Below are positions 1 through 18,875 of a stretch of DNA of 18,875 bases, piece after piece; within the stretch, counting starts at the first letter, position 1, and the number at the start of each line of letters is the position of its first letter. The translations under genes and the position numbers were made by a program. Below the pieces are notes generated by a model. The model had not been told where the DNA came from. It ran no database searches and worked only from the letters and a program-made list of their open reading frames with translations. This stretch comes from Escherichia coli (GTDB lineage: Bacteria; Pseudomonadota; Gammaproteobacteria; Enterobacterales; Enterobacteriaceae): NCBI RefSeq assembly GCF_003334335.1, contig NZ_QOWQ01000056.1. The stretch is one strand, 5' to 3'.

Positions 1-77
1 TCCATAAATTAACCTTCATTTGATGCTGGATTGAACATATCAAAATCAGGCAATTACACAAATCTATGTACAGGCTC
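1..77. repeat. Left copy of a perfect 77-bp terminal inverted repeat (partner at 18799-18875)
   Basis: Reverse complement of 18799-18875 is identical to 1-77 base for base (checked by hand); identity stops at 77/78 (c vs a). AT-rich. Outward extent beyond the window edge cannot be seen. Confidence 0.9.
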
Positions 78-423
78 CTTGCGAACATTGTTCATCAACT
101 GTGACACTGGCTCGCGGGTGACAAATACTCGCCTGGCTGAGCAGCAACAGGCATCGTATTGTTGCTCCTCCATGTTGTTCCCGCAACCAGCGTAATACCA
201 CAGGCAGTGCTGGACTGGCAGTGTGATTGCTCTCAGTAATACGTTCGTGCACCTGTCGGAAAAAGGAAGTACAGAATGCATGAATCTGTTGCCCGTTGAT
301 ATTTCCTTCTGCCGAATGGAGTGTGAAGTAAAATGCCAGCAAATGCGGCCAGTGGTCCACCGCCTGCTGAACAAAACGCCGGATGTCTCCCGGCTCTGAA
401 ATTAAGGCTTCGGTTATTTGCAC
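64..423 (-). CDS. Hypothetical ORF, possibly a gene remnant in the GC-richer left flank; no family recognised
   Basis: 119-aa ORF in the track; the first codon is GTG (plus-strand cac at 421-423) and there is no in-frame ATG near the start. Stop TAG lies inside the left inverted repeat (64-66). A second overlapping minus-strand frame (54-374) is also open, so coding status is uncertain. Confidence 0.2.
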   Translation of the reverse strand: MQITEALISEPGDIRRFVQQAVDHWPHLLAFYFTLHSAEGNINGQQIHAFCTSFFRQVHERITESNHTASPALPVVLRWLREQHGGATIRCLLLLSQASICHPRASVTVDEQCSQGACT

Positions 424-430
424 GAAATGT
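398..430. repeat. Left copy of an imperfect direct repeat bracketing the microcin island (candidate att-like boundary)
   Basis: Core cttcggttatttgcacgaaatgt (408-430) matches cttcggttatttgctcggaatgt (14083-14105) at 21/23; with 10 flanking bases about 27/33. Same orientation. It sits at the switch from GC-richer flank to the AT-rich microcin block. Confidence 0.45.
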
Positions 431-758
431 TCCTTTTCAAACCCTGTTGGATTTTGTCAAGACGGTACAGACACAGTAAAGCGCGCATCAACACCTGAAA
501 GGTACGATACAAACACAAGTTACAAACAATAAGAACGGAAGGACAATTAATCAGTGAGGAATAATAACTAAATTAACCAAAAGAATGTTACTGACAATAC
601 CACCAATACTTAAATAGCAATATATTAATTAATGTAAGAACAGATGCCCGGTAAGACATATACACAATACATCCACAAACACACTCTTTTCATTAAATAA
701 ATCACCTGATTAAACCATGAAAGTGTGATGTAAGTCAAAATTACTGACACAATCAATT

Positions 759-783
759 GATAATGATTATCTCTATCATTATC
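759..783. promoter_or_regulatory. Fur-box-like operator (iron-responsive) upstream of the 869-2125 operon
   Basis: gataatgattatctctatcattatc: the first 13 nt match the Fur consensus GATAATGATAATC with one mismatch and the last 9 nt (ATCATTATC) match the consensus 3' half exactly. It lies about 85 bp upstream of the ATG at 869. Confidence 0.45.
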
Positions 784-868
784 GTGAAATTCGAGAATGA
801 AAGGAGAAGTAGTCATTATAAGCCTTTTATAAATCGTCATCATCATAGTAAAGTAGAACACTTTTTAT

Positions 869-1339
869 ATGAGTTACTATATGAAAATATACTGGACAAG
901 AAAAAACATTCCTGAACTTTCAGCACTTCCACCTTCATTAAGAAAGAAAAATTTTACTGACGCATATAATGCTGCATCTTCCCATATCGAATACTGGATA
1001 GGTGCTGGCGTCTCATTTATCTCGATGATGATTTTATTCAAAGTATATGACTTTCTTTTACCCGCCCAAGATACTTTCCCGGGTGATATCATAAGAAGTT
1101 TATGTGTTGTGTGTCCATCCATATTAATCTGGTTTCAGTTTTCGGTATATGTCATGAGGAAATATTACAGACATATTCTGGAACGAGGTAAGGAAACCGA
1201 AACCATTTCAGAAAGGTTGATACGTGAGGCTGATACACGAGAATATGAACTATGGCGTCCGGCCCATCGCTTTTTCTCCATTATTTTTCTCATTATTCTA
1301 TTAGTTTGCATTCATTCACTGATAACAACTATAAAATAA
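869..1339 (+). CDS. Putative polytopic membrane protein (156 aa), function unknown; possible microcin immunity or accessory protein
   Basis: ATG start at 869 (second ATG at 881); hydrophobic segments (WIGAGVSFISMMILF, LCVVCPSILIWFQFSVYV, FFSIIFLIILLVCIHSLI); very AT-rich like neighbouring microcin genes; co-directional and 100 bp upstream of the CPBP gene. No obvious Shine-Dalgarno. Confidence 0.45.
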   Translation: MSYYMKIYWTRKNIPELSALPPSLRKKNFTDAYNAASSHIEYWIGAGVSFISMMILFKVYDFLLPAQDTFPGDIIRSLCVVCPSILIWFQFSVYVMRKYYRHILERGKETETISERLIREADTREYELWRPAHRFFSIIFLIILLVCIHSLITTIK

Positions 1340-1438
1340 AAGTTATGGCTGTTCTGATACAGGAAAATAAACGTTCATTCTATGGTTACCTCTTCCTGTT
1401 ATATAAAAGAATTTTAAACAACAAGTAAGGGAATATAA

Positions 1439-2125
1439 ATGGAAATAACAAAAAATAAAAATGCAACTATAAAAAAACAGTCATCAGCCGGCTGCTTTTC
1501 AATGTTTACTTTATCATTTTCCATTACCTTTATTCCTGCATTTCTTACAAACAGGCAGGAACTTATATCCAGGGGGCTTCTTGTTCCAGCATTATTTCTT
1601 GCTGAATTTCTAATTCTTGTTCCACTGTATTTTATTTTCTTCCGAAAAAGAGAAGGATTAGGAAGAGGTTCTTTTCGACTGGATGTTTTTTTTACTCTTT
1701 TCTCTTTAATAATGATTATTCAGTTATTTGTCCCTTATCTGCTGGCAGTGAGGAAAACGGAAGAATGGATGATCTCGCAAATGTCTTTTTCCGGGGCCAT
1801 TTTATGGATTAATATATTTTCTTCCGTACTTCTTGTTCCTGTATATGAAGAGATTGTATTTCGAGGGTGTCTTTTTAACTCTTTTAAATTCTGGTTTAAT
1901 GACAATATTTACATCTCTGCTATTGTAACATCAGTCATATTTTCTGCATTACATCTACAATATACTGACTTTCGTACATTTTTGATGCTCTTTCTGATAT
2001 CGTTAGTTCTTATCAGTGCAAAAATAAAGTCGAATGGCCTGTTAATGCCCATATTACTTCACATGGCGATGAATGCAGTCATAACAGGAATACAATATAC
2101 GTTACAATATCACATAACAGTCTGA
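1439..2125 (+). CDS. CPBP-family (CAAX protease / bacteriocin-processing, Abi PF02517-type) intramembrane metalloprotease, McmM/MceF-like
   Basis: 228 aa; ATG at 1439 preceded by taaggga (1426-1432). Family motifs in order: EExxxR (VYEEIVFRG), FxxxH (FSALH), HxxxN (HMAMN), within a multi-helix hydrophobic protein. Homologues (mceF, mcmM) are known in siderophore-microcin clusters. Confidence 0.8.
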   Translation: MEITKNKNATIKKQSSAGCFSMFTLSFSITFIPAFLTNRQELISRGLLVPALFLAEFLILVPLYFIFFRKREGLGRGSFRLDVFFTLFSLIMIIQLFVPYLLAVRKTEEWMISQMSFSGAILWINIFSSVLLVPVYEEIVFRGCLFNSFKFWFNDNIYISAIVTSVIFSALHLQYTDFRTFLMLFLISLVLISAKIKSNGLLMPILLHMAMNAVITGIQYTLQYHITV

Positions 2126-2377
2126 AATTGTTATTATGAGATATCTATAACACCTGAAGTTGGAAAAAGAAGCAAATAATTCCTTATAAGGAATCGTTTA
2201 CTAATATATTTAGATAATCTCATATTTGTTTATGATATACATCTGATTAAGATATAATGGATTATAAATTACTCAAAGGTGAACAAATATCTTCGCCTTT
2301 TCTCGTAGAAAGAGACTTGAAACTTATAATACATCTATATAAACGTGATTTAAATCACGGTTTGCAGTAAAAGCAAT

Positions 2378-2386
2378 TGGTATAAT
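2378..2386 (+). promoter_or_regulatory. Candidate extended -10 promoter element (TGgTATAAT) for the immunity-like/microcin-like pair
   Basis: tggtataat at 2378-2386 fits the TGnTATAAT extended -10 pattern; the nearest -35-like hexamer (ttgcag, 2362-2367) has a short 13-nt spacer. Sequence-only prediction. Confidence 0.25.
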
Positions 2387-2570
2387 TCATTGGTATTACT
2401 ATTATTTCATCTATTGCACGAACTATTTTACAACAATAAAAAAGATATACAAACAGCAAGAAGTAAAAATATTCGGATAAATAAAAATTTTTGCTACCTT
2501 GGTTTCTATAGTCTTTATTTCTAAGTTTTTCATAAGCACTCAAAGACTCATGTATAGGGACGGTTTAATA

Positions 2571-2735
2571 ATGAAACTATTTTTTTATTTCTCGTTGTTC
2601 TTTATAATACAACTTATAAATTCAGACTTAGACACATTAACCCTTTATCTTTTCATAAAGAAAATAATTCTTTCGTTACTTGCGAGTGTACTGTTTTTAT
2701 TTGTTTTATCTTTCTTTAATAAAAAGAGGAAATAA
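2571..2735 (+). CDS. Candidate microcin immunity protein (small two-helix hydrophobic peptide, about 54 aa)
   Basis: The track ORF 2499-2735 starts at TTG; in-frame ATGs occur at 2550 and 2571, and the 2571 one has aggga 11 nt upstream. Product MKLFFYFSLFFIIQLI...IILSLLASVLFLFVLSFF NKKRK has two hydrophobic helices and a basic tail. Stop TAA (2733-2735) is 1 nt before the microcin-like ATG, and the precursor's RBS lies inside its last codons. Confidence 0.4.
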   Translation: MKLFFYFSLFFIIQLINSDLDTLTLYLFIKKIILSLLASVLFLFVLSFFNKKRK

Positions 2736-2736
2736 C

Positions 2737-3060
2737 ATGAGAAATATAACAACCGATGAACTTGCTTTAATACATGGTGCAGGATTAGATAAAGATGCAT
2801 CCGTTGCAATAGGTACTGCGGCTGGTGGTTTTTTAGGTAAAGCAACAAAAATCCCTGGTGCGGATATAGCAGGAAGTGCAATTGGAGGATATATTGGAGG
2901 AGTTATTGCTGATGGTTCAAATAGGACAATAACAATACCATCAAACGGTATTAACTATAATCCGGGTATAGGACTTGGAAGTTTTAATCCAAACTACAAT
3001 GGAGGTTTATTAAACTCAGGATTTAACTCATCAACATCCTCTTCTAGTAGTGGAAGTTGA
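2737..3060 (+). CDS. Class IIb (siderophore-type) microcin-like precursor, 107 aa: 15-aa double-glycine-type leader plus 92-aa Gly/Ser-rich core
   Basis: ATG at 2737 with strong SD aagagga (2724-2730). Leader MRNITTDELALIHGA|G parallels MchB MREITESQLRYISGA|G and the MRxI(S/T)xxEL pattern. Core is cysteine-free, 20/92 Gly, and ends NSSTSSSSSGS like the Ser-rich tails of H47 and E492 that receive the salmochelin-type moiety. The track's 126-aa version starts at TTG (2680) with no RBS and overlaps the upstream ORF. Confidence 0.7.
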   Translation: MRNITTDELALIHGAGLDKDASVAIGTAAGGFLGKATKIPGADIAGSAIGGYIGGVIADGSNRTITIPSNGINYNPGIGLGSFNPNYNGGLLNSGFNSSTSSSSSGS

Positions 3061-3069
3061 TTAATTTCT

Positions 3070-3105
3070 AAAGCAGCATAGCTTATTATGCAGCAATGCT
3101 GCTTT
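3070..3105. terminator. Candidate bidirectional rho-independent terminator between the convergent microcin-like gene and mchF
   Basis: aaagcagcat (3070-3079) pairs with atgctgcttt (3096-3105); an alternative tighter hairpin gcagc-aat-gctgc is followed by tttt. Located between the stop at 3060 (+) and the stop at 3121 (-). Confidence 0.45.
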
Positions 3106-3120
3106 TAGTGATATATTATC

Positions 3121-5223
3121 CTAATTTGTAATTCTAAAAATCCGATCAACTGTTCTTAAAGTTGTCTCTCTATGTGCAATAATCACCCGGGTGATATTCA
3201 TCTTTTTTATAGCAGCATTCACGAAACGTTCACTTTCTGTATCAAGAGAACTTGTAGCCTCATCCATAAATAATATTCCAGGTTTCCGGTATAAAGCTCG
3301 GGCAATGAATATACGCTGTTTTTGACCGCCGGAAAGACCTTCCCCCAGTTCACCTATTAACGTTTCATACCCCATTGGCATTTTCATTATCACATCATGA
3401 ATATGACTTGCTCTGGCACATTCTGTCATCCATTCGTCGTCTGTTTCTTCTGCAAACCCACAGATATTTTCACGAATTGATCCTGAAAATAGCCGGTCGT
3501 CCTGCATAACACAGGCTATCATACGGTGATAATTATTTATTCCAAGTTGACGTATATCCGTGCCATTAACCAGTACTTTTCCACTATCTGGTTCAAACAG
3601 TCCACATAATACTTTCATTAATGTGGTTTTTCCGGCACCGGAGGCACCAGTTATAGCCACACTTTCTCCCGGAGCCACAGACAAATTCAGACCACTGAAT
3701 ACCTGTGCTGACTGGCTGTCATACCGGTAGCTTAAATCAGTGGTTTCCAGTGAAACCGGGCTCATGTCAGCAACGATTTCAATTTCCGGTTTCTTTTCTT
3801 CCTTTTCATGTAGTGCAATATCTGCAATGCGCTCATTATGCAGACTCATTATTCTCAGTTGAAGAAGAAAACTGGTCAGCGAAGCAACCCGATCCGAAAA
3901 CTGCCCACGAAAAGAACCAAATGCCACAAACATCCCTATTGTCATCTGATTATCGATCACAAGGCTTGCACCCAGCCATAAAATCGCCACCTGATCACAG
4001 GCGGCAACAAAAGTATTTATCCCCCCGAAGAGCAAATCCATCCTGGTTAACTTAATACCTGAATTGATCGCATCTATTTTCAGGTTAAGCCAGTGTGTTC
4101 CCCGAATCCCAGCCATACCCTGGATTTTTACCGTGGCAATACCATACAGGCTTTCCATAAAATAGGAGCTGGCCCGGGCCCCCCTGACAAGAGTTTCTTC
4201 CGATATTTGCCGGTAATAGCCGTATGTCACCAGACGAATAAGAACGTAAACCATGGTAAAACCGAGCACTATCCAGGTAAGATATCCTCCATATAACAGC
4301 ATCATCACAAAAACACCCACAACCATAATACTGTCCATGATTGCCCCAACAACACAGGTGGTAAAGGTGGCCCTCAAAGTGTCAAGGGAGCCAAAACGCG
4401 ACTGGATATCACCTAATTTACGGCGTTCAAAAAACGCCAGCGGCAGTCTGAGAAGATGGTTAAACAGACCCGACTGCCACTGTATATTGATGAGCGTGCT
4501 CATAACCAGTGAGGACCATGCACGCAGCATACTCACCGCGGCCCTGAGCAATATAAAGAACATCAGGCCAGCAGAAATAAGCGTCAGCAGCCCTCTGTCC
4601 CCCGCCGGAATCGCATGATCCATAACCAGCTGAGTTCCCACCGGCATTACCAGATTGATTGCTTCAATTACAACTGACAGACAGAAAATTTTCGCCAGTG
4701 TTCTTTTAATACCGTAAATACTGTTAATCAGTGAACGGAGACTTATGCGGGTCTGCTGGGTTTCCGCCAGGAATTCACTTCCGGGCCAGACCTCAAGTGC
4801 AATGCCCGTAAAATACCGGCTCATTTCCTCCCGACCGAGATATCTTCTGCCTCTGGCCGGATCATGCAGTACATAACGGTTACGCTTTACGCTGACCAGC
4901 ACGACGAAGTGACTGAAATCCCAGTGGAGAATACACGGCATTTTGAGGGCACCAAGTTCATCCAGCTCCAGTGAAAGAGCCCGGGTGACCATCCCCAGCT
5001 GCTCCGCTATTCCATTGATTCCTGCAAGGTTTGCTCCACGGGCCGAGAGATTAAACTTCCGGCGAAGAGATATCAGGTCAATATTCTTACCAAAATGACC
5101 GCATATCATTGCCAGGCAGGCCAGTCCACATTCAGCGGTCTCCGTCTGATGAATAACCGGAACACGACGTCGCCAGCGCATATCAAGCTGATTTATAATT
5201 TGTCTGAAATTCCCGTTAGTCAT
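3121..5223 (-). CDS. mchF: Microcin export ABC transporter with N-terminal C39 peptidase domain (CvaB/MchF family)
   Basis: About 700 aa. C39 catalytic Cys context [14 protein letters not shown]; Walker [10 protein letters not shown]; ABC signature LSGGQKQR; Walker [10 protein letters not shown]. The track ORF (to 5241) begins at GTG; the ATG at 5223 ([10 protein letters not shown]) has AGGA 9 nt upstream and overlaps the mchE stop by 8 nt, as in cvaA/cvaB. Confidence 0.93.
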
Positions 5224-6457
5224 TGAGCGGTCCTGTTGCACTGTGTTTCATGTCATAGAAAGGAGAAAGCATCCACTGGTAAATACGCCTTTTTTCCAGA
5301 AATAGTGTACTTTCGGCTTTCATTCCATTTTCCAGAGGGAGGTATTTTTCGTCATATCTGATAATCTGCTTTTCAGGCATCGCAATGACTTTATACCAGG
5401 GAACAGAGTCGCCCGGCGTATTCTGTGGTGCTCCCTTATAGGTCAACATTTCCTGTGTTGACGCAGGAGTCCTGGATATAGTTTTAACCGTAGCAGAGAA
5501 CTGCCCAAATTTTTCTGCCGGAAAGGCTTCATAACGAATATTCACTTTGTCACCAGCCGAAATATAAGGAACAGCATCATTCGGGACCCAGAGAATAAGA
5601 TAATAGTTTTCAATGTTCTCAGGAATAACCTGCAGAAGGCTGTCTCCGGTATTGACCATTTGCCCGACAGTGACACTCAGGGAGTCAACTTTCCCGTCAG
5701 TCAACGCCCGGATAATGATTTCGCCCTCCACATCAGTGTTAACCAGTTCTTTCTGTAACTCATACCGTTGCAGTTCCATCTGGTAGATACGGTTATCAAA
5801 ATCTGCAGCCTGAGTCTGAATCTGACTCTCCAGAGTGGTTATCTGCAGGGCATTCTGTTCGTTCTGTCCGCTCAGGCTGAGAAGATTGTTTTGTTGCTGA
5901 TAATATAATGCCACCTGGTTAGTTAACTGATCTTTATTAATCAGCCCTTTTGCCTGATAGTTTCTGTAATTCTCCATATTGTTTTTCATTATTTTTATCC
6001 CTTCCTCTGCACGCTGTATAATATCTGATGAGCGACGAAACGCATCTGTGTATTGCAGGCGTTGTTTTTCCAGGGTATCTAGCGTTATTTTTTTACTTTC
6101 TTCCAGACGGGAAATAATGTTGTCCACACGAACCAACTGGTTTTCTATATCCCGACGATGATTATCAGTGACAATACCACTACGTGTACTTTTACTGATG
6201 TCAATCAGATAAACAGGATCCCCTTTTTTTATCAACTGTCCTTCATGAACAAACTGCCTGACAACAAATCCCTGTACACCTGAATATATATTGACAGCTC
6301 TTGGCCAGGTTGTGACCTCACCACTGACATTAACACGGCGGCTATAGGTACCAACAATAATGAACATCAGAAATGCCGTAATAAACACTATGCTTCCCAG
6401 CATGATTAACCATAGTGGTATTCCGGGAAGTAATATTGCCCGTCCCTGCCACTTCAT
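5216..6457 (-). CDS. mchE: HlyD-family membrane fusion / secretion protein (CvaA/MchE family)
   Basis: N-terminal TM segment ([28 protein letters not shown]) followed by a long coiled-coil region and C-terminal beta domain typical of HlyD-type partners. The track ORF starts at TTG (6490); the first ATG is at 6457 ([12 protein letters not shown]), giving 413 aa. Confidence 0.92.
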
Positions 6458-6642
6458 TTTTCTGTTTTCTAAAGCATCCTGACGAAACAAAATAGCTCCT
6501 CTTACTCACACTTTTCCTGTAATATCTTCACTGGTTAACCGAAATGCTATAATCAAAGCCAGAAAATACAGAGTCCTGTCAAAATAGTATCAGCGATGCA
6601 TTTACCCCGTAATTTACAATTATCTCTGTATCTTCAGAGGTA

Positions 6643-7095
6643 CTACGTTTTATGCAGCCGCTCAGGGATGTATGTCACAATTTTCTTTCGCCTGCTTAAC
6701 CATCGTACTTCTCCTTCTCCCCATGGCTGAAGCTGTATGAGATAGTCAATAACTTTTCGACCAAAGCCTGGTTTACAACAGAAATCCAGAATCCAAATCC
6801 TTCCATCTTCATTCCATTCAGACGGATGCAACCTGAATTCTGGATCCCTGAGCAGGCGCGCTTCTGTATCAGCCTCAAGATATGCCCAGGTAATATACGC
6901 CAGTGGAAAACCTCGTGAATCAAACAGGAATTTAATCTGATTATGCTGTATCGCATATTCAGTCCAGTATTGAATGGTTAACACCGGATACAGACTGTAA
7001 TTACGATTGTAGAGCATACAACTGACCGCAAAACCGATCTGTTCATAAACAGTCCATTCATCTTTTCCTCTGATGGTTTCCCTTATATAAGACAT
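6643..7095 (-). CDS. mchD: MchD/MceI-like microcin maturation protein (HlyC-like acyltransferase family), 150 aa
   Basis: ATG start at 7095; 150 aa; located between mchC and mchE in the conserved mchBCDEF order. In the E492 system the MceI/MceJ pair links glycosylated enterobactin to the C-terminal Ser of the precursor. Confidence 0.8.
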   Translation of the reverse strand: MSYIRETIRGKDEWTVYEQIGFAVSCMLYNRNYSLYPVLTIQYWTEYAIQHNQIKFLFDSRGFPLAYITWAYLEADTEARLLRDPEFRLHPSEWNEDGRIWILDFCCKPGFGRKVIDYLIQLQPWGEGEVRWLSRRKKIVTYIPERLHKT

Positions 7096-7120
7096 GATTA
7101 CTATTTCCCTTATATATTTT

Positions 7121-8671
7121 TTACACTGTGTTTCTTATCGGTTCAAGATATCCAAATGCATCTCTGGAAAACTTAAGCATAAAATTTTTCATATCAGAAA
7201 TTGCTTCTTGTAAAAAAAGGGGATCATCGCCATGATTATCCAGCAGGATGGCAATTTTTTCGCACATATTCTCTTTCCTCAGCTCTTCCCTGGGTTGCAG
7301 CCTTTTCATGGTATGATGTTCAATTTCTTTCAGGAGTAATGAGGCATTTATCTGACGTCTGGTACTGCCTTGCGTCAGCCAGTGGATGGCCTGGGAAAAA
7401 CACTGTTGTGCAACGGTGAAATAAACATCATTCTTGATGCTACTATTCAGTGCCTGCTTTTGATTATGCCTATGATGGATTAGCGTCACAACCAACTTTT
7501 GCAATGGTGAACCATCCTGATTGACAATATCTTGGGCATGTGATTTCTCGCAGTATTGATTGAGTAATGCAACAAAACTGTTAACCAGTTCTTTCAATAT
7601 ATCAGGTATCTCTTTTTGTGTTATAAATTCTCCAGGAATACCCAACAGTTCTAGATAACAGTAATAACATGCTTCATGAAAAGTTTTCTGAAATATCTCC
7701 TCAACCTTCAAACGGGCTGCAAGAGTGAAGTCAGGGTCAAACATATATTTTCCGATATACAAGCAGAGATCAGACAGCCCTTGCATAAGTACCATCGGTT
7801 CTTTTGCCAGTTCAGCTAATCTTAGTTTATACCCAAAATCAGCTGGGGAATCTCCCGGAAACAGACAACTGAGTCCGCTAAAATCCATTAATCTGCCATC
7901 CATTGCAATATTAGAAGGAGAAGTTGTCAATCTCAGGAAACGTGTTCGACAAAATGCCATTTGCCAGGCCTCACGACGTGCCAGTTCACATAACCCCTCA
8001 ATGCAATAAATCCGGGGATCAGTTCGTGCTTCAGCATCAATTTCTTCCGGTGGTACAGGTAGATATCCTGGCAGCTTGTGGATCACAGATCTAACCCGAC
8101 AGGCATCGTGAATTAACAGACTGGAATACTCCGGTTTTACTTGGAAGTAAGGTGCCCGTTCAAAATGCGCCGGACGAACAACAGGCTCACGTACCAACAG
8201 GGCTCTTCGTGATTTCCTACCGGAGCGCTCAAATGCCTTTTCAGTATAGAGATCTGTAAGTAAAACCGCCCGAACCCGCACAGCACTATAAGGTAATATT
8301 TGAGCCAGTACTTCTCCCCACAAAGCCTCATATATTGCATGAACAGCGCCGAGTGCACCATTAGAATGACGTTCGTCAGTACCTTCGCCAACCAACGGAT
8401 TACTTCCTATTCCTTTAACCTGGTAGTTACCATCAAACCCACAACGTGCACCACCTCCATTACGCTGAATACCACTGCCACCATAGCGCTCTGCATGGAA
8501 CACTTTGGCAGAAGCTGTACTGCCAGGATCGATAATATAACTGCAGGCATTTTGCAGCTCGTCTGGATTTCTGACATCCTCTGCACACCAGATTAATGAG
8601 GCCTTGATCTGCCTGGCAGTGAAAGGCACCAGGTTTTCATTCAGTTCAGAAAGTGAACACTGATGACTCAT
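7121..8671 (-). CDS. mchC: MchC/MceJ-like microcin maturation protein, 516 aa
   Basis: ATG start at 8671 (MSHQCSLSELNENLV...), GGAG about 12 nt upstream; 516 aa; immediately downstream of mchB on the same strand and upstream of mchD. Confidence 0.85.
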   Translation of the reverse strand: MSHQCSLSELNENLVPFTARQIKASLIWCAEDVRNPDELQNACSYIIDPGSTASAKVFHAERYGGSGIQRNGGGARCGFDGNYQVKGIGSNPLVGEGTDERHSNGALGAVHAIYEALWGEVLAQILPYSAVRVRAVLLTDLYTEKAFERSGRKSRRALLVREPVVRPAHFERAPYFQVKPEYSSLLIHDACRVRSVIHKLPGYLPVPPEEIDAEARTDPRIYCIEGLCELARREAWQMAFCRTRFLRLTTSPSNIAMDGRLMDFSGLSCLFPGDSPADFGYKLRLAELAKEPMVLMQGLSDLCLYIGKYMFDPDFTLAARLKVEEIFQKTFHEACYYCYLELLGIPGEFITQKEIPDILKELVNSFVALLNQYCEKSHAQDIVNQDGSPLQKLVVTLIHHRHNQKQALNSSIKNDVYFTVAQQCFSQAIHWLTQGSTRRQINASLLLKEIEHHTMKRLQPREELRKENMCEKIAILLDNHGDDPLFLQEAISDMKNFMLKFSRDAFGYLEPIRNTV

Positions 8672-8695
8672 CTGGCAGTATTCTCCGTTTCAATT

Positions 8696-8721
8696 TTCAT
8701 AAAAGAGTGTTCATAAAAGAG
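8696..8721. repeat. Tandem 12-bp direct repeat (ttcataaaagag x2, 2-nt spacer) in the mchC upstream region
   Basis: ttcataaaagag at 8696-8707 and again at 8710-8721, 25-50 bp upstream of the mchC start codon (8671, minus strand). Candidate operator or UTR element. Confidence 0.3.
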
Positions 8722-8942
8722 CAAGTAAGTGTCCTGACAGCTTCTTCCTTATTACAGTAAAACTCTATTAATTACACATAAATTAAAAAATTATTTATCA
8801 ACGACTGTAAATCATATCTTCATCAGTAAAGTGTTGAACATAAAAACACACTTATAAATGGATCTTCTATCTGTTTTAAACAAAAAGGATATATTTTACA
8901 GGTACTACCGAAAAAGTGCCTGTAAAATAAATAAAAATATAA

Positions 8943-9170
8943 TTAGCTACCGCCACCAGCAGAAGAACTGGCACTACCACTTCCCACGGTCGAGCCAATT
9001 GCTGTTGTCAAACCGGCAGATACGGCTCCAACTACAACCCCAAGTGGACCACCAGGTATTCCGGCGAGAGCTCCAACAATAGCTGCAGCACCTGCAGCAT
9101 TAGCTGAAGTCGCTGGCGCACCTCCCGCCCCGGAAATATATCTTAACTGTGATTCTGTTATTTCTCGCAT
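8943..9170 (-). CDS. mchB: Microcin H47 precursor (75 aa; 15-aa double-glycine-type leader, Gly/Ala-rich core, Ser-rich C-terminal tail)
   Basis: Translation MREITESQLRYISGAGGAPATSANAAGAAAIVGALAGIPGGPLGVVVGAVSAGLTTAIGSTVGSGSASSSAGGGS matches the microcin H47 precursor as I remember it (length, leader, SASSSAGGGS tail). ATG at 9170. Confidence 0.95.
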   Translation of the reverse strand: MREITESQLRYISGAGGAPATSANAAGAAAIVGALAGIPGGPLGVVVGAVSAGLTTAIGSTVGSGSASSSAGGGS

Positions 9171-9197
9171 ATAAACTGCATATAAACTCCATCATAT

Positions 9198-9407
9198 TTA
9201 ACTTCCGTTTTTCCAGTCTGACCAGACCAGAATCCTTCGAATCCCATGAATCAGCTCAATAAAACCAAGAAATATTATAAAGCTTAGAAAAACGTCAACA
9301 TAAGAATTCCCTTCGCCAACAATCCGAAGGGATGAAAGTGAAACCAATAAGATAGTAATAGGTAAACTGAATATAGCCGTCAATTGGGACAGTTTTTTAT
9401 AACTCAT
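9198..9407 (-). CDS. mchI: Microcin H47 immunity protein (69 aa, membrane peptide)
   Basis: 69-aa hydrophobic peptide (two predicted TM helices) directly upstream of and co-directional with mchB; ATG at 9407. Size and position match MchI. Confidence 0.88.
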   Translation of the reverse strand: MSYKKLSQLTAIFSLPITILLVSLSSLRIVGEGNSYVDVFLSFIIFLGFIELIHGIRRILVWSDWKNGS

Positions 9408-9475
9408 TAATCCCTACCTGTTGCTTTATTTTCATTATGAAAAGTTACCAAATCTTAGCACCTCAGTCAGGAGAG

Positions 9476-9595
9476 TCAGGTCATCGATAAAGAATATTCC
9501 AGTAGAGTGGCGCTCATGATCAAAGATAACAGCAAAGTTGATGACAGTGCTGACCGACTGTCATTTACAGAAACCCTGTTTGTAGCAAATTCCAT
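9476..9595 (-). CDS. mchX: Small 39-aa ORF upstream of mchI (MchX-like regulatory peptide)
   Basis: Not in the track (below 60 aa); found by hand: ATG at 9595 to TGA at 9476-9478, translation MEFATNRVSVNDSRSALSSTLLLSLIMSATLLEYSLSMT (39 aa). Position and length match mchX of the H47 system; I cannot confirm the sequence from memory. Confidence 0.55.
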   Translation of the reverse strand: MEFATNRVSVNDSRSALSSTLLLSLIMSATLLEYSLSMT

Positions 9596-9626
9596 CTTAC
9601 CTGACCTCACCCAGACAAAGACAAAA

Positions 9627-9645
9627 GAGAATGATTGTTATTTAC
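9627..9645. promoter_or_regulatory. Weak Fur-box-like site in the mchX / mchS4 divergent promoter region
   Basis: gagaatgattgttatttac matches the 19-bp Fur consensus at 13/19; it sits about 30-50 bp upstream of the mchX start on the minus strand. Confidence 0.3.
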
Positions 9646-9818
9646 TTTTCAAAAAAAGTGTCATATTGTCCATATAAAGTCAAGAGGTATTTTACGTTAT
9701 GTCACTGATGCAATTGTTAGTCAGGATCTCATGGTTGTCGCTCATGTATAACCTGAGACTTGAACGCACACTAATAGCGCTGACGGTCATACATCGGGAA
9801 ATGTGAGGAGGCATAAGA

Positions 9819-10064
9819 ATGAATTGTGATAATAATCACAGAAATGAAGAATTCATTGTTACCTTTGATAAAGGCAACAAGCAAGACAATTCAAGACGAA
9901 AACACGATAATTTTCCTATAGAGGTAGAATCCTCCGTAGAGCAGGAGACACACTGTATCACAAATAATAAGTCAGCTTCCGGTATAGTAACACATGGCTA
10001 TGATGCCGATTATATTTGTGGTTGTGGTGAAATTATGTGTCCTGGTTGCGGTCATGACCTATAA
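9819..10064 (+). CDS. mchS4: Small 81-aa protein with C-terminal Cys cluster (CxC-x4-CxxC), MchS4-like by position
   Basis: ATG at 9819 with SD gaggagg (9805-9811). C-terminus YICGCGEIMCPGCGHDL. Position between mchX and mchS3 matches the H47 island gene order as I recall it. Confidence 0.55.
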   Translation: MNCDNNHRNEEFIVTFDKGNKQDNSRRKHDNFPIEVESSVEQETHCITNNKSASGIVTHGYDADYICGCGEIMCPGCGHDL

Positions 10065-10084
10065 CAAACATTTTTGCAAACTGA

Positions 10085-10098
10085 TACCTGATCAGGTA
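10085..10098. repeat. Perfect 14-bp palindrome tacctgatcaggta just downstream of mchS4
   Basis: tacctgatcaggta is its own reverse complement; lies 21 bp after the mchS4 stop and about 120 bp upstream of mchS3. No loop, so it looks more like a protein-binding site than a terminator. Confidence 0.3.
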
Positions 10099-10219
10099 CA
10101 AGCCTGTTGATTATTATGCTGAATATTTCATGTTATAAAACCATCGATATAAACATTAACAAGAAAAAACATATATTGTTTATCTGAACATTTATCGATG
10201 GAAAACCAAAGGGGAAAGT

Positions 10220-10654
10220 ATGTATCTTACGAAAAAGATTATAATAAGTATGATGTTTATATTACCATCTGCTGCATTTTCATCAGATCCACCTCCCCTT
10301 CAACAATCGTTAGAAAAAACAACCTATTTTTCTATAGGTATGAATGGGTTTATAGGCTATCAGAGCGAAGGGGAAAAATTATACACACACATTCTTACAT
10401 TAGATAATCCCGAAGAGATATTTAAAAATATAATAGAAAATAGAAAGTCAACTAAGGAGTCTAAAATTTATGCTGCTTGTGGGCTATATTATTTAAACGT
10501 AGAAAATATAGAGTCATTGTTTAATGAAAATGATAAACAAGAATATATGTCTGTCTTAAGAGGGGATATTTTAACAAAAATAAAACTGAATGATATTCTG
10601 AATTCTGTGATAATAAATGGTTGCAACACCAAATTAATATCTGAACATAAATGA
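10220..10654 (+). CDS. mchS3: Putative immunity protein for the downstream microcin (144 aa, N-terminal signal/anchor), MchS3-like
   Basis: ATG at 10220 with SD aaagggga upstream; N-terminal hydrophobic segment KKIIISMMFILPSAAFSS; ends 16 bp before the microcin precursor gene, the classic immunity-then-toxin arrangement. Confidence 0.65.
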   Translation: MYLTKKIIISMMFILPSAAFSSDPPPLQQSLEKTTYFSIGMNGFIGYQSEGEKLYTHILTLDNPEEIFKNIIENRKSTKESKIYAACGLYYLNVENIESLFNENDKQEYMSVLRGDILTKIKLNDILNSVIINGCNTKLISEHK

Positions 10655-10670
10655 GCAGGAGGTTTTTAAA

Positions 10671-10907
10671 ATGAGAGAAATATCAGATCACATGCTTGAT
10701 TTCGTGAAAGGAGGGATGAATCTTAATGGATTACCTAGTTCTACTAATGTAATAGATCTACGAGGAAAAGATATGGGAACATATATTGATGCTAATGGAA
10801 CATGCTGGGCTCCGGGTACTCCATCCATCATCATGTATCCGGGGGGAAGTGGACCTTCTTATAGTATGAGTAGTTCCACATCCAGCGTAAACAGCGGCAC
10901 ATCATAA
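10671..10907 (+). CDS. mchS2: Second siderophore-microcin-type precursor (78 aa; leader MREISDHMLDFVKGG, Ser-rich tail), microcin I47-like
   Basis: ATG at 10671 with SD aggagg (10657-10662). 15-aa leader ending GG, 63-aa core with one Cys, C-terminal SMSSSTSSVNSGTS. Position next to mchS3 and mchS1 matches the H47 island. Confidence 0.8.
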   Translation: MREISDHMLDFVKGGMNLNGLPSSTNVIDLRGKDMGTYIDANGTCWAPGTPSIIMYPGGSGPSYSMSSSTSSVNSGTS

Positions 10908-10940
10908 ATACCCTCCGGCATGGCCGGAGGGTATTTATGA
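10902..10940 (+). terminator. Rho-independent terminator-like hairpin at the end of mchS2
   Basis: 18-nt arms tcataaataccctccggc / gccggagggtatttatga around a 3-nt loop (atg), with a GC-rich core ccctccggc/gccggaggg; overlaps the mchS2 stop codon. Confidence 0.5.
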
Positions 10941-11191
10941 TGTGCCTGTAAGACTCTACTTCTGTCGTCTCTTAACAAAGGCATATGATCTGTCATTTTG
11001 TACCAGACATCTTAACGAGAGCCTTTTCATATATTACTTACACACGTGAAATCTACAGTATAAAGCAAAAATTTTATTAAACCTGTTTTATATTTATCAT
11101 CAATACAACAGATTTAATTCCGGAAAGTCACTCATCATCCCTTGAATGAACGTCATTTGATGTATTATTCTTACACTTGGATTAATTTAAG

Positions 11192-12466
11192 ATGATACCT
11201 ATGAAAAACTATCTTTTCCAGACTCCCGAAGATATTTGTGTACAGTTAAAAAAAATGACACATCCTGTCACAATAAGAACAACAGATATTGCTAATTTCT
11301 GGCACTATCTTGAGTCAGCAACACTTCCAGTGATCACAAAAAGCACCACTACAGAAAATCGGGAGGTTACATTTCTGTGGCGCTCAGAGAAAGCACTGCA
11401 AGGCGTATATCTTCGCCTGAATCGTGTTACAGATAAAAAAGACGTCAAAAAAGGACTAATGACTCATATCCCTTCGACAGATATCTGGATGCTGACACTG
11501 GTGTTACCAGCTTCATATCGGGGCTCATACTCATTTATAGAAATTCCCACAGATATGACACAAAAAGACATATTTCAACTAGGAAGTCGCTTCTCTCCAT
11601 TACCCGGTAAATCTGATCCATTTAACAAAACAGCAGAAATAAATATACGAGGATTCGGAGAATCAGTCCTTTCTCTTGATATGGCTCCTGAACAAAAGGA
11701 ATGGGATGATACTTCCCATAAATGTACAGGTATTCTTTCAACATTACATTCCTTTGTTGCAGGATATCAACGCCGGATTCGTTTATATTTCCCCCTGAAT
11801 CCAACATCAGTACCTCTTGGATTACTTGTGTTACCTGATGCTGAAACATGGTTTGACCGGATAGATATTACCCGGGCATTAGATATGGCCATCACCACTG
11901 GTCGTATCACGCCAATGGCAATTATGGGGATAGACAATATTAATGAATCTGATCGTATGAATATACTGGGAGGCAATAAAGAACTCATCTTTGATATAGC
12001 GGAAAATCTGATACCCCAGTTATACAGAGACTATCCGGATATCGTATGGGCTGGTCGCTCTAATACTGTACTGGCCGGGCAGAGCCTCGGTGGAGTGACA
12101 GCACTGATGGCAGCTATATATGCGTCGACAACATTTGGTACAATCATTAGTCACTCACCTTCAATGTGGTGGAACCCTGACCAGGGCAGCCCGATCTTGT
12201 TTACTGAGAATAATACCTCCTGGGTAAGTGAGCAGATACTTTCAGCGCCTCCGAAAGATGTAAATATCCGACTTGGAGTCGGTTCTTTAGAAGGTACAAC
12301 CGTCTCACATGTTCAGCGATTGCATCATTCGTTAATCGCAGCTGGTTTGGAAAGTAACCTCACTGTCTATACCGGTGGTCACGATTATGCTTGGTGGCGC
12401 GGAGCAATTATTGATGAATTAGCAAATTATAATTGCAGGAAGGTATCAAATAATAACTCTGTGTAA
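11192..12466 (+). CDS. mchS1: IroD-like enterobactin/salmochelin esterase (alpha/beta hydrolase), 424 aa
   Basis: Serine-hydrolase nucleophile motif GQSLGG (AGQSLGGVTALMAA); size close to IroD/Fes-type esterases; convergent with and adjacent to the IroB-like glycosyltransferase. Alternative ATG at 11201. Confidence 0.8.
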   Translation: MIPMKNYLFQTPEDICVQLKKMTHPVTIRTTDIANFWHYLESATLPVITKSTTTENREVTFLWRSEKALQGVYLRLNRVTDKKDVKKGLMTHIPSTDIWMLTLVLPASYRGSYSFIEIPTDMTQKDIFQLGSRFSPLPGKSDPFNKTAEINIRGFGESVLSLDMAPEQKEWDDTSHKCTGILSTLHSFVAGYQRRIRLYFPLNPTSVPLGLLVLPDAETWFDRIDITRALDMAITTGRITPMAIMGIDNINESDRMNILGGNKELIFDIAENLIPQLYRDYPDIVWAGRSNTVLAGQSLGGVTALMAAIYASTTFGTIISHSPSMWWNPDQGSPILFTENNTSWVSEQILSAPPKDVNIRLGVGSLEGTTVSHVQRLHHSLIAAGLESNLTVYTGGHDYAWWRGAIIDELANYNCRKVSNNNSV

Positions 12467-12535
12467 AATATCGTTTTATCGTCCGATAACTCTTTCTGCA
12501 ATATTATTATGGGAGACTGTCTCATTTATTTAGTG

Positions 12536-12564
12536 ATGTCCTTCATTTATGTGATGAAGGACAT
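12536..12564. terminator. Candidate bidirectional terminator hairpin between convergent mchS1 and mchA
   Basis: atgtccttcat (12536-12546) and atgaaggacat (12554-12564) form an 11-bp stem with a 7-nt loop, flanked by T/A-rich runs on both sides. Confidence 0.45.
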
Positions 12565-12607
12565 TATATTACTCATAACATTTCTCGTTGAAAATTTCAG
12601 CAATACG

Positions 12608-13732
12608 CTACAATTGTTTCCCGTTGTTTTTTAATTTTCTCATCAAAACCTCTGCGATCTCTGCAGGAGTGGGTTGTTCAGCCATTTCAGCGGCTACCTG
12701 ATCTGAACAGAAGCGTAGTGAATCATCATAAAGCAGGCGATTTACCAAATCACTGGTCAGTCCATGCTTGTCCGGAATAATCCCACACCCACGCTTCGCA
12801 ACAATTTCTGCATTAACAGAGCGATCTGCACCTTCTCCAAACACAATCTGTGGTATTCCACTATACAGCGCTGTCAGGGTATTACCTGCGCCACCGTGAT
12901 GAATAAATCCATCAGCTCCATTAAGGAATACACCCATAGGTATCCAGTCAACCAGACGTACATTTGATGGTAGTTTTCGTAATCCAGTACGAGCATTTAT
13001 TGCAAGTTGCAAAATGATATCAGCATCAACTTCATTTGCTGAATCCATAACCCATGAAATCAGCTCCAGACCATCAACCATTGGTTTTACAGTGCCAAGG
13101 CTGATGAGTAAACGTTTCCGATCAGAATCCCTGTCCCACCATGTTTCCTTTACAGCACCTCCGTTATAAGGAATATATCGCATTGAGATAATCGGTTCTT
13201 CAGCATTTTTAAGAATGCTCATACTTGGGGGAGCAACATCAATCCATGCTAAATCACATAGTGGACCGCTGACTCCATGCCGCCTGTAAGCATTGCTTAA
13301 AGAACGGTTTAACATCTGAATATGGGCAGATGTATGCGCGAATCCAACAGCCAGCATCACTGAAGGAATTCTATATTTAGCAGCAACCAATGGGCCTGCC
13401 GGACCAAGCGGGGGATAGACTATTAAATCTGGCCTCCATTTTCCTGCAAAATCGATGAGGTTATCTGCCATTTCATCGCTAAAAAAAGAGAAATGACCAA
13501 TAATATTACTTTTTTTCCTCAACTCTTCCTGATGGCGATATCCAGCCTCTGAATCTAAACTTGGAGCTGCATCAAAAACAACCAGTCCAGCTTCTGCTGC
13601 TTTATTCGCGAATTTGCCAGCGCTACTAATTACTACATCATGTCCGATTACACGAAAGGCCTGAGCCAGAGAAATCAATGGGTATAACAAACCGTACAGC
13701 GGAGGGCCAATAAAAAGAATACGTTTTCGCAT
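12608..13732 (-). CDS. mchA: IroB-like C-glycosyltransferase (GT1/MGT family) for enterobactin glucosylation, 374 aa
   Basis: ATG at 13732 (MRKRILFIGPPLYGLLYPLISLA, the IroB-like N-terminus); UDP-sugar-binding signature region FIHHGGAGNTLTAL; length close to IroB. Confidence 0.88.
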   Translation of the reverse strand: MRKRILFIGPPLYGLLYPLISLAQAFRVIGHDVVISSAGKFANKAAEAGLVVFDAAPSLDSEAGYRHQEELRKKSNIIGHFSFFSDEMADNLIDFAGKWRPDLIVYPPLGPAGPLVAAKYRIPSVMLAVGFAHTSAHIQMLNRSLSNAYRRHGVSGPLCDLAWIDVAPPSMSILKNAEEPIISMRYIPYNGGAVKETWWDRDSDRKRLLISLGTVKPMVDGLELISWVMDSANEVDADIILQLAINARTGLRKLPSNVRLVDWIPMGVFLNGADGFIHHGGAGNTLTALYSGIPQIVFGEGADRSVNAEIVAKRGCGIIPDKHGLTSDLVNRLLYDDSLRFCSDQVAAEMAEQPTPAEIAEVLMRKLKNNGKQL

Positions 13733-14072
13733 TAAAAAAGTCCGTCTTCTGCTTACCTGTTTATTTTTCTATCGCTAAGAAAACATAATTAATATTATTT
13801 TTATGTGAGCTTATGCACAAAAATAACAAAGTATCTTATCTTCTGGTAGAGATACAGGATACAGTTTGTAGGAGCTTTCTTTTTTTGAACAATGATTTGC
13901 AGGACAGTTATGCCAACCTAGCAGAATCAGTATCACAACAATAAATGACAGATCATACCTGAAATTTGAATTAACAGGCATCATGAATGTCAATAGTCTA
14001 AGCGGTTACTACTTACATCGCTTGCATAAATACTAAACACTGACTAGAAAAGTATTGGATAACCCCGTCACT

Positions 14073-14105
14073 AAAAGTAACACTTCGGTTATTTGCTCGG
14101 AATGT
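14073..14105. repeat. Right copy of the imperfect direct repeat bracketing the microcin island
   Basis: See the 398-430 entry; the core at 14083-14105 is 21/23 identical to 408-430. It lies in the 675-bp non-coding gap between mchA and the alpA-like gene. Confidence 0.45.
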
Positions 14106-14407
14106 ATCAACGCCAAGATTGTTAGCCGTTACGCCTTATATCACTGGCGCTGACAAATGTTTCTTTTCTAATTTACTGAACCGGCGCAGACTTACAGAAA
14201 AACACTCCGGCACCGGTGTAATGCCAGTTATAATCAATAAGAATAGAATGACGAATCAGTCAGGAATAGCTATAACCTGCAGGCTGACTGGAGAATGTCT
14301 GTAAGAAGATGAACGTAAATGTCGCCAGTACCAGGGGCAGGGCCGGGTTCCACAATACCAGCGCCGGCATTTTGCACATTGCCAGCGTACCGGCATCACA
14401 ACACGTT

Positions 14408-14644
14408 TCATGCAGCTGCTCCTCGTGATTCCTCAATTCGCTGCTGCATCCACTGCTCCACTTCACTTTTGTACCAGCGGCTGCTGCGACCCAGTTTTAT
14501 GGGTTTAGGAAAATGACCTTCACTGATCAGCTTGTAAAACCATTTATCGGTCATACCGGTGAAACTGGTGATGTAGTTCATGTCGATCAGGGGATCGTCG
14601 GCACGCAGCAATACACTGTCGTGGCCTGTTATTGAGGTCAACAT
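14408..14644 (-). CDS. alpA: AlpA-family phage/island transcriptional regulator (excisionase-like DNA-binding protein)
   Basis: MTDKWFYKLISEGHFPKPIKLGRSSRWYKSEVEQWMQQR fits the AlpA-type helix-turn-helix pattern. ATG at 14644 with GAGGA upstream; alternative internal ATG at 14581 would give 57 aa. Confidence 0.75.
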   Translation of the reverse strand: MLTSITGHDSVLLRADDPLIDMNYITSFTGMTDKWFYKLISEGHFPKPIKLGRSSRWYKSEVEQWMQQRIEESRGAAA

Positions 14645-14712
14645 AGTCAGGATGTCCTCTGTGAGATTTATGGAGGTTGGGCAAATGCTGGTGAATCTGC
14701 TGAACTGAGCTT

Positions 14713-15288
14713 TCAGAACAGTCCTGCAGATCCGGGATAGCCGGGATTACCGGCGAGGCAACGGGCTTCCGGATCGCACACACCACGACGATCGCGGGCG
14801 AAATCACTGAACGCCCAGATCAAGTCTTTGAGGATGTCTTCGCAGTCCGGTGAACGACTGTCCAGCACCACATCCCGGGTGATCTGCTTCTGGTACGGTG
14901 CTGCTTCACCCGGTGATGCGAAGCCCAGTACGTTGCTCCAGGCATCCAGAATCAGCCGATCCAGTTCAGGGCCGTCGAAATACTCTTGTCTGACGCATAA
15001 CACCACGTGGTATTCCGGCTTTTCCGGATGACGGGTCAGGAGCCAGCAAAGGTCGCGTCCGGGTTTCGCATTCATCAGCGCACTGACGGTTTCGATAAAA
15101 TCCATACCAAACCAGGTCTGTCTGCTGTTGAAGGCGTTGTCATGTTCCCACGGCAGACGAAGCAGGATCCGCCGTATCCGTGAGCCGGACTGCTCACGCA
15201 GCGCACGCTCAAGGACGCCGATGACTTTGTTCTGATAAGATGGCCAGAAGGGTGCCAGGCTATAGTCGAAATAAGGAATAGCATTCAT
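14713..15288 (-). CDS. Inovirus Gp2-family (YagK/YfjJ-like) protein, about 191 aa
   Basis: The track ORF starts at TTG (15318); first ATG at 15288 (MNAIPYFDYSLAPFW...). Contains a YHVVLCV segment and shares overall pattern with the upstream paralog. This family is typical of P4-like islands next to alpA. Confidence 0.6.
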   Translation of the reverse strand: MNAIPYFDYSLAPFWPSYQNKVIGVLERALREQSGSRIRRILLRLPWEHDNAFNSRQTWFGMDFIETVSALMNAKPGRDLCWLLTRHPEKPEYHVVLCVRQEYFDGPELDRLILDAWSNVLGFASPGEAAPYQKQITRDVVLDSRSPDCEDILKDLIWAFSDFARDRRGVCDPEARCLAGNPGYPGSAGLF

Positions 15289-15535
15289 AAGATATGTTCC
15301 GTTATGCGCAGCCCACAATGCGTCCTGCCCGTGAATGAGCTGACGTGTTATGGCTTGCGGAATGAGATTGATGGAATAAGTGAAGAACCGAAGCAGAACG
15401 GGAAGACAAGGAACAAAACACCGGATGCAGGTTCAGGATGAATGATCTCCGTTGACTTCAGTTCACATCATTAATCAAGGCGGTAAGTTTTTACCGACGG
15501 AGTGTTTCCAGGAGCGAAGGCTCAGGCCTTAAGCT

Positions 15536-16102
15536 TCAGAAGTGAGGCTTACGAGGACGCCCTGCAGCAGGACGTTCAGGAACTTCATTGCAGCCGTAGG
15601 CACACAACCCGTCTTTTTGCTCTTCTTTCGCCAGATAATGCAGAGCACCGCGAATATTATCGATGCTTTCAGGCTCGTTATGACGCACAGGAATGTTGAT
15701 GTTGTATGTATAATGCGGCTGATATGTACAGCAGTGTGCCGAACCGCTGTTATGCGTAATAGACCGCCAGCATTCCGTAATCCGCTCCGCAAAGGGATAT
15801 ATTTTTTTAACCCTCTGACGATCGATCCAGAAAACCACATGCGCATGAAAACCATGATCAACCGTCCATTCAATCACCCAGAAGAAGCCAACCATATTTT
15901 CAAATTGTTCAACCTGCTCCAGCAGCATACGCAACTGCAATTCAAGCCAGCGATGATCAGGTTGTAAGAAATCGGGCGTATCTTTCCTGTAGAAGAAATC
16001 CATCCGTAAGGCCCGCAGGCAGGAATAGCGTGCCATCATTTGATTGATGTGATTGTCAAGTAAAGCGGTAAAAAACCAGTTTGGTGTGTAAGATTTAGGC
16101 AT
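15536..16102 (-). CDS. Inovirus Gp2-family (YagK/YfjJ-like) protein with HUH-like motif (FHAHVVFW), 188 aa
   Basis: ATG at 16102 with AGGAG 8-12 nt upstream. HAHVVF resembles the HUH motif of rolling-circle initiators from which this family derives. Tandem with the 14713-15288 paralog. Confidence 0.65.
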   Translation of the reverse strand: MPKSYTPNWFFTALLDNHINQMMARYSCLRALRMDFFYRKDTPDFLQPDHRWLELQLRMLLEQVEQFENMVGFFWVIEWTVDHGFHAHVVFWIDRQRVKKIYPFAERITECWRSITHNSGSAHCCTYQPHYTYNINIPVRHNEPESIDNIRGALHYLAKEEQKDGLCAYGCNEVPERPAAGRPRKPHF

Positions 16103-18800: not shown

Positions 18801-18875
18801 GCCTGTACATAGATTTGTGTAATTGCCTGATTTTGATATGTTCAATCCAGCATCAAATGAAGGTTAATTTATGGA
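18799..18875. repeat. Right copy of the perfect 77-bp terminal inverted repeat (partner at 1-77)
   Basis: Exact reverse complement of 1-77; its inner boundary overlaps the last 2 nt of the stop codon of the 404-aa ORF. Confidence 0.9.

Follow-up and report, generated by a model that had tools for sequence, protein, structure and literature searches.

The 18,875-nucleotide contig NZ_QOWQ01000056.1 of Escherichia coli (assembly GCF_003334335.1), analysed as a whole and referred to here as the window, contains a microcin gene island of the H47 family bracketed by two long, imperfect direct repeats. Each repeat copy is a mirror-image hybrid of the sequence found at unoccupied sites and of sequence carried by the island, and the pair represents the end-repeats of this island family, very probably left as scars of a homology-guided insertion and not integrase sites. 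None of this is a new feature: work on the same island family from 2006 to 2017 had already described the repeats, where they lie and what role they were proposed to have, and the H47 island itself is described in PLoS One 6:e26179 (Azpiroz, Bascuas & Laviña 2011) and PeerJ 5:e3293 (Azpiroz & Laviña 2017), with its sequence in AJ009631 and a further example as GI-2 of strain 042.

The best-matching parts of the two copies are the left 23-mer cttcggttatttgcacgaaatgt (408–430, plus strand) and the right 23-mer cttcggttatttgctcggaatgt (14083–14105, plus strand), both placed by a repeat search and a mismatch-tolerant motif count. They are identical at 21 of 23 positions in direct orientation, with an exact identity of 14 bp (408–421). 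The ten bases to the left of each (398–407 and 14073–14082) match at 6/10, giving 27/33 in total; both counts had been made in an earlier sequence-only reading of the window and are borne out by reading both copies. The repeat search extends the pair to 42 nt (389–430 and 14064–14105; 34/42 identical, 81%) with a start-to-start distance of 13,675 nt. The length of 33 bp given in that reading is wrong, as the copies form a gapped repeat, the left one being ~180 nt long and the right one ~210 nt.

The similarity of the repeat pair exceeds chance. At up to three mismatches the 23-mer occurs at only two places in the window, and two matches were found in 0 of 200 dinucleotide shuffles. The self-comparison of the whole window proposed in the sequence-only reading ranks the 23-mer pair first among direct matches (score 44), and the second-best direct match (518–563 with 14226–14268, plus strand; score 40) is collinear with it and holds a 9-bp identity, CAATAAGAA (527–535 and 14235–14243). 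Over 100 composition-preserving block shuffles the best score was 31.1 ± 2.8 with a maximum of 40, and 44 was never reached (0/100). A chance resemblance, or a regulatory motif common to both places but independent of the island ends, could appeal to the perfect identity of just 14 bp, to the other 30–35-nt repeats at 74–79% identity that are also present in the window, and to the fact that each copy lies either in front of a minus-strand gene or at its beginning. Set against the shuffles, the collinear second match, the alignment of both copies to one continuous empty-site sequence and the conservation of the pair in strains 042, EDL933 and NCTC10444, this explanation has next to no probability. 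Composition also changes at the copies: the guanine-plus-cytosine (GC) fraction falls from 0.47 (1–500) to 0.30 (501–1000) across the left copy, as had been claimed, and on the right side it rises from 0.36 (13751–14250) to 0.50–0.57 (14251–15250).

Alignment of the two copies with each other, with 042 and EDL933 and with four empty sites places the full left copy at 381–562 (~182 nt, plus strand) and the full right copy at 14057–14268 (~212 nt, plus strand). Aligned with each other they have 57% identity over a gapped 265 columns, and their only perfect runs are the 14-bp and 9-bp identities. Their hybrid structure emerges from the multiple alignment and from segment-wise identity counts against the four empty sites. 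The outer part of the left copy (380–473) is empty-site-like, matching the empty site of AVS0967 at 51/51 positions over 380–430 and at 39/43 over 431–473, and its inner part (474–556) is island-type, with a match of only 45/84. The right copy is arranged in the opposite order, with an island-type inner part (14056–14162; 39/51 against AVS0967 over 14056–14105) and an outer part, from ~14163/14193, that is empty-site-like (70/72 against the N1 empty site over 14193–14264). The 23-mer is only the best-conserved stretch of two diverged homologues. The switch between site-type and island-type sequence, the putative crossover point, lies near 463–473 and 14181–14192, ~50–90 nt from the 14-bp core. 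The sequence-only reading had taken the short repeats to be the left and right junctions of the island; the 23-mers do sit within both junctions, but neither the 23-mer nor the 33-mer is the junction point itself, the switch lying elsewhere. The island type of the window is also present in EDL933 and NCTC10444, and the left inner arm is present in Nissle 1917 as well.

Empty sites were sought in complete E. coli genomes with a chimeric query built from both outer flanks, contiguity being defined as flanks within ~1 kb of each other. Contiguous flanks are present in 1,328 complete genomes, including strain N1, which has the gene context of the island-bearing strain N10; island-free relatives of the kind proposed for comparison in the sequence-only reading thus exist. 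The flank sequence itself occurs at a median of two places per genome. An empty site consists of a ~265-bp spacer between a gene for an AlpA/excisionase-like helix-turn-helix (HTH) protein and a gene of 170–182 codons whose product is annotated either as 'UCP030791 family putative phage-derived' or as 'YagK/YfjJ domain-containing'. In the window the HTH gene of the flanking island backbone is at 14408–14644 (minus strand), with the site ~250 bp downstream of it, and the 5′ part of the 170-aa gene (UCP030791 / YagK-YfjJ-domain family) is at 78–423 (minus strand), with its first 14 codons inside the left copy. The N1 empty site aligns to window positions 78–~568 and 14163–14800, and ~116 nt of it match both copies. 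The target is thus ~180 bp of pathogenicity-island backbone, comprising the spacer 3′ of the HTH gene together with the start of the 170-aa gene (promoter region and 14 codons). The outer contexts of the island number at least three: ShlB/CdiA genes in N10, ProQ/pgtP in AVS0967, and the ter/iha island in EDL933.

Such empty sites would not separate excision from a site that was never occupied, as either would appear as one outer half joined to the other. The published database argument, which used empty sites of types II–IV, is non-discriminating because a never-occupied site looks identical, and the empty sites in the databases are likewise unable to tell the two apart.

The repeats are orthologous to the published attachment (att) sites of the H47 island. 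Primer sequences from the earlier work (PMC3191183) place out2 at 285–307 (plus strand, one mismatch), facing the left copy, and in1 at 13864–13886 (plus strand, one mismatch), facing the right copy; on this placement the left copy corresponds to attR and the right copy to attL. Primer out1 has no site in the window at up to five mismatches and was placed by eye in diverged sequence at ~14296–14317, and in2 matches only at four mismatches (1467–1489). By gene order the window is in the opposite orientation to AJ009631. The published att copies are perfectly identical in four stretches, of 13, 11, 20 and 17 bp (PMC5426353), the last of which, identity segment IV (GCTTCGGTTATTTGCAC in H47 and 042), corresponds to the 23-mer of the window. 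Strain 042, called almost identical to H47 by those authors (PMC5426353), has two copies that align over 146/155 nt (75% identical); the uninterrupted identities between them are 17, 20, 11 and 13 bp long, which are the published values.

The window island shares with that of H47 the locus, the flanking backbone genes, the bracketed genes for microcin maturation and export, the out2 and in1 sites, the direct orientation, the lack of a recombinase gene and common empty sites. The two differ in that the right copy of the window contains an extra block of ~45–57 nt and identity segments I–III are lost; its perfect runs are 14 and 9 bp at 57% identity, against 17, 20, 11 and 13 bp at 75–77% in H47 and 042, so that the published arrangement of four identity stretches in ~146 bp at 76–77% identity is not found in it. 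The 042/H47 type lacks the extra block and has lost an estimated ~480 bp that begin at the inner end of its left copy and reach into the first cargo gene, whereas the left copy of the window reaches ~65 nt further inward. Cargo differs too, microcin Ec W lying in the window where H47 has truncated microcin M genes. The Ec W cluster of NCTC10444 is of the same type as that of the window, with a left-repeat inner arm 99.1% identical to it. The window copies are a degenerate variant of the published attL and attR. The island type that carries Ec W has degenerate end-repeats, and what the H47 clone showed about excision should not be extrapolated to this type.

No mobility functions are apparent at the island. 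The RefSeq annotation of the identical N10 segment contains no recombinase, integrase or transposase between the copies, and comparison of the unassigned cargo open reading frames (ORFs) with NCBIfam gave no recombinase family match. No transfer RNA (tRNA), transfer-messenger RNA (tmRNA) or Rfam family was found at the site, and tblastn revealed, within the island ends, no remnants of either flanking gene (170-aa or HTH), which would have pointed to an older and larger duplication. An ORF of the same length as the HTH gene (625–861) was considered as a remnant of it and rejected, its translation being junk. The product predicted for excision by crossover in the 14-bp core, an empty site with the extra block, occurs in none of 5,426 complete genomes, and neither does the predicted circle junction, for which the matches at 66% coverage are 042-type right copies without the extra block. 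No plasmid carries the whole island: no record reached 80% query coverage, and only cvaAB-like export genes and O157 remnants matched.

As integrase-type att sites the copies therefore have neither a cognate recombinase nor a tRNA or tmRNA target, and the switch lies outside the 14-bp core. The island resembles tRNA-linked islands with a P4-type integrase in its direct repeats at the ends, its low-GC cargo and its presence/absence polymorphism; it differs from them in having no integrase or tRNA target, in its long imperfect repeats and in being nested in a larger island backbone. Nor is there a short perfect duplication accompanied by terminal inverted repeats and a transposase, as would be seen with a transposon. 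The direct orientation of the copies does resemble a target-site duplication, and insertion sequence (IS) elements are common nearby: the window has an IS1414 terminus at either end, and N10 has an element of the IS3 family. However, the copies are too long and too diverged for such a duplication (~180–210 nt, 57–81% identity), the island has no terminal inverted repeats and no transposase inside it, and each copy combines parts of two diverged homologues; an origin as transposon ends or as a target-site duplication is almost certainly wrong.

The sequence-only reading had described the H47 determinant as able to excise. This has a published PCR (polymerase chain reaction) signal behind it, but the evidence is PCR only, with neither a recombinase nor an in vivo product, and the att function of the repeats is unproven. 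PCR products for excision and for integration were obtained in recA cells, with crossovers in four different identity stretches and most frequently in the 20-bp segment (PMC3191183). [quoted passage not shown] They recovered no deleted clone or gel band and stated that PCR chimeras were not completely discardable, while a FRT control plasmid in the same study did give an in vivo RecA-independent deletion (PMC5426353).

The original 2011 model of a 'parasitic' island, moved by site-specific recombination acting in trans, would accommodate the excision and integration products of recA cells, the AlpA-like HTH gene ~250 bp away and the widespread empty sites. The excisionase match of that HTH gene is weak (TIGR01764 'excise', E=4e-4, below the curated cutoff). 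All 16 K-12 recombinases and the clone flanks were dispensable, the authors themselves discarded site-specific recombination, and crossovers in four identity stretches are atypical of a site-specific enzyme; the site has no tRNA target, the core identity is 14 bp with the natural crossover suggested by the empty sites lying elsewhere, and the predicted excision and circle junctions occur in 0 of 5,426 genomes. Together these points make the model quite improbable for the window. Another possibility is that the copies are inert scars, that the reported mobility is PCR template switching between them, and that the island moves only within larger recombined segments. The failure to recover a deleted clone or gel product, the chimeras conceded by the authors, the identical PCR pattern from every mutant and the way the product classes tracked the length of perfect identity (the 20-bp segment being commonest), as expected of template switching, are all consistent with this. 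So is the co-replacement of the flanks in N10 and N1 described below, and the empty-site survey would be silent on excision if those sites have the appearance of never-occupied ones. On the other side, the in vivo deletion of the FRT control means that RecA-independent events are real in E. coli, and the three or more outer contexts require some transfer between backbones; this explanation is unlikely, though it has points in its favour.

End-repeats of H47-family islands that are scars of homology-guided insertion, and at most occasional recombination substrates, have partial parallels in phiSE14 of Salmonella Enteritidis and in a transposon of Streptococcus pneumoniae, which likewise encode no recombinase of their own, have long direct end-repeats and give RecA-independent PCR junctions (PMC5426353). 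The repeats of those elements are 308 bp at 98% identity and ~1,200 bp at >99%, and their in vivo loss was recovered (PMC5426353); the window copies share no perfect run longer than 14 bp, and loss of the island in vivo has not been documented.

Comparison of N10 with N1 bears on how the island is gained and lost in nature. The two strains share the neighbouring CdiA/ShlB genes, an ECs1377-family gene and the 170-aa gene. In the left flank there is one mismatch in ~2.8 kb followed by 56 mismatches in 132–486, and in the right flank (14163–14760) there are 7–15 mismatches per 100 nt for ~600 nt followed by 0.5–3.5 per 100 nt. Because the divergence between N10 and N1 is concentrated beside the island and the distant flanks are nearly identical, the pattern suggests that homologous recombination in the backbone brought in or removed the island along with some hundreds of bases on either side; it looks unlike a clean att × att event. 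The other pairs (AVS0967 with 200177, AVS0967 with its own second site, and 042 with E223) are 5–15% diverged throughout and are uninformative. Block exchange by homologous recombination, as indicated by the N10/N1 pair, bears on the spread of microcins among pathogenic E. coli.

These observations fit a scheme in which a segment carrying a diverged homologue of the target would enter the ~180-bp site, and a single homology-guided (Campbell-type) crossover would produce the two hybrid copies. The copies would then remain as junction scars, serving at most as substrates for rare RecA-independent deletion at short homologies. Such deletion should be rarer here than in H47, because only 14 and 9 bp of identity are available and the extra block interrupts the copies. 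Natural gain and loss would probably proceed mainly as a block, via homologous recombination in the conserved flanking backbone.

Several points weigh against this account. The original insertion mechanism is not readable from sequence. Both copies of 042 have island-type sequence in the 'GCGCATCAACACC' stretch, so the copies are mosaic, and with mosaic copies a single reciprocal crossover would be too simple, gene conversion or several events being needed. The block replacement rests on a single near-isogenic pair, and the flank divergence seen in it could stem from gene conversion between paralogous island backbones. Finally, the published PCR products, if not artefacts, show both excision and integration, which would make the repeats recombinationally active.

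The extra block (14106–14162, plus strand, ~45–57 nt) is found only in the right copy of the window island type; EDL933 also has it, and it is absent from 042 and from the empty sites. Its core is 49 nt (14107–14155) with 8-nt inverted ends (TCAaCGCC ... GGCGcTGA). The same 49 nt occur inverted in the uropathogenic E. coli (UPEC) strains MS7163 (locus L009, 4001–4049) and N32 (locus L008, 4001–4049), where the inverted block is joined to the same HTH-side flank (97% identical), ~40 nt from papI. With approximately one copy per genome, the 49-nt block is not a multi-copy miniature inverted-repeat element. The pap operon of MS7163 was considered as cargo lying between both copies and rejected, only the HTH-side flank and the inverted block being present there. 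Because the block, in both orientations, joins the same HTH flank to two cargos (the microcin island and the pap operon), the ~180-bp site might be a cargo-exchange hotspot served by a RecA-independent host activity, with 14107–14155 as part of a recognition or breakage site; this idea is speculative and distinctly improbable.

Strain SCU-308 (locus L010, ~2700–3050) has a deletion variant of the island: its mchF is truncated and runs directly into the right copy within the extra block, at window position 14117. The position of this junction indicates that rearrangements at the right end are not limited to stretches of identity.

The cargo of the island spans 563–14056, as defined from the ORF list, the RefSeq annotation of N10 and the Ec W paper. 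Window positions 78–17826 are 100% identical to the N10 chromosome, where the mch genes are annotated, and at least 80% of the window is carried by 63 complete genomes. The first cargo genes encode a hypothetical protein of 156 aa (869–1339, from the N10 RefSeq annotation) and the CPBP protease mcmM (1439–2125, from the ORF list and the N10 annotation). They are followed by the Ec W pair (2571–3060, plus strand), in which the immunity gene Ec WI ends at 2735 and the precursor gene is at 2737–3060. The immunity ORF encodes a small membrane protein and ends one nucleotide before the precursor gene; the precursor is a 107-aa protein whose 15-residue leader ends in GA and whose C-terminus is rich in serine. 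Downstream of the precursor are, in this order, mchF, mchE, mchD, mchC, mchB, mchI and mchS3, named in the N10 RefSeq annotation as mchF, HlyD-family, acyltransferase, MchC-like, mchB, mchI and mchS3. An MccI47-like ORF (10671–10907), an esterase gene (11192–12466) and the glycosyltransferase gene mchA/mcmL (12608–13732) complete the set. All microcin genes, from mcmM/CPBP and Ec W through mchA, lie between the repeat copies, so the bracketing claimed in the sequence-only reading holds.

That reading had also placed a new microcin module inside a mobile unit. The Ec W pair is indeed inside the bracket, but the module is not new: it is the published microcin Ec W. The precursor is WP_001390454.1 in N10, and the identical accession is found in NCTC10444 at 3367929–3368252; RefSeq still names it 'hypothetical protein'. 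The NCTC10444 locus was published in 2025 as microcin Ec W with immunity gene Ec WI (PMC12999681). That paper makes no mention of a genomic island, direct repeats or att sites (PMC12999681), and the small addition made here is the placement of Ec W inside a repeat-bracketed unit. The Ec W-carrying island type is widespread in extraintestinal pathogenic and avian pathogenic E. coli (ExPEC and APEC), with a remnant in O157:H7.

The remnant, which retains both repeat copies, is present in O157:H7 EDL933 (in the tellurite/iha island) and in other Shiga toxin-producing E. coli. In EDL933 (locus L007, ~5350–9860) IS1F has removed the region from the start of the CPBP gene through the 3′ end of the esterase gene, and the glycosyltransferase gene is intact.

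The two ends of the window (1–77 and 18799–18875) are exact reverse complements of each other. Positions 18785–18875 match the end of the IS256-like element IS1414, and the IS end cuts the 170-aa gene at 77/78. The window looks like a complete short-read contig that extends at each end into one and the same IS terminus, in inverted orientation, by 77 nt, which is a typical k-mer length; two IS1414 copies may bracket the 18.7-kb segment in the manner of a composite transposon. Promoter and terminator scans gave counts within shuffle expectation, and only one candidate emerged from them, a terminator-like hairpin with a T-run at 14207–14227 (minus strand). It lies downstream of the HTH gene in the site-type part of the right copy, and the equivalent part of the left copy is without a hairpin.

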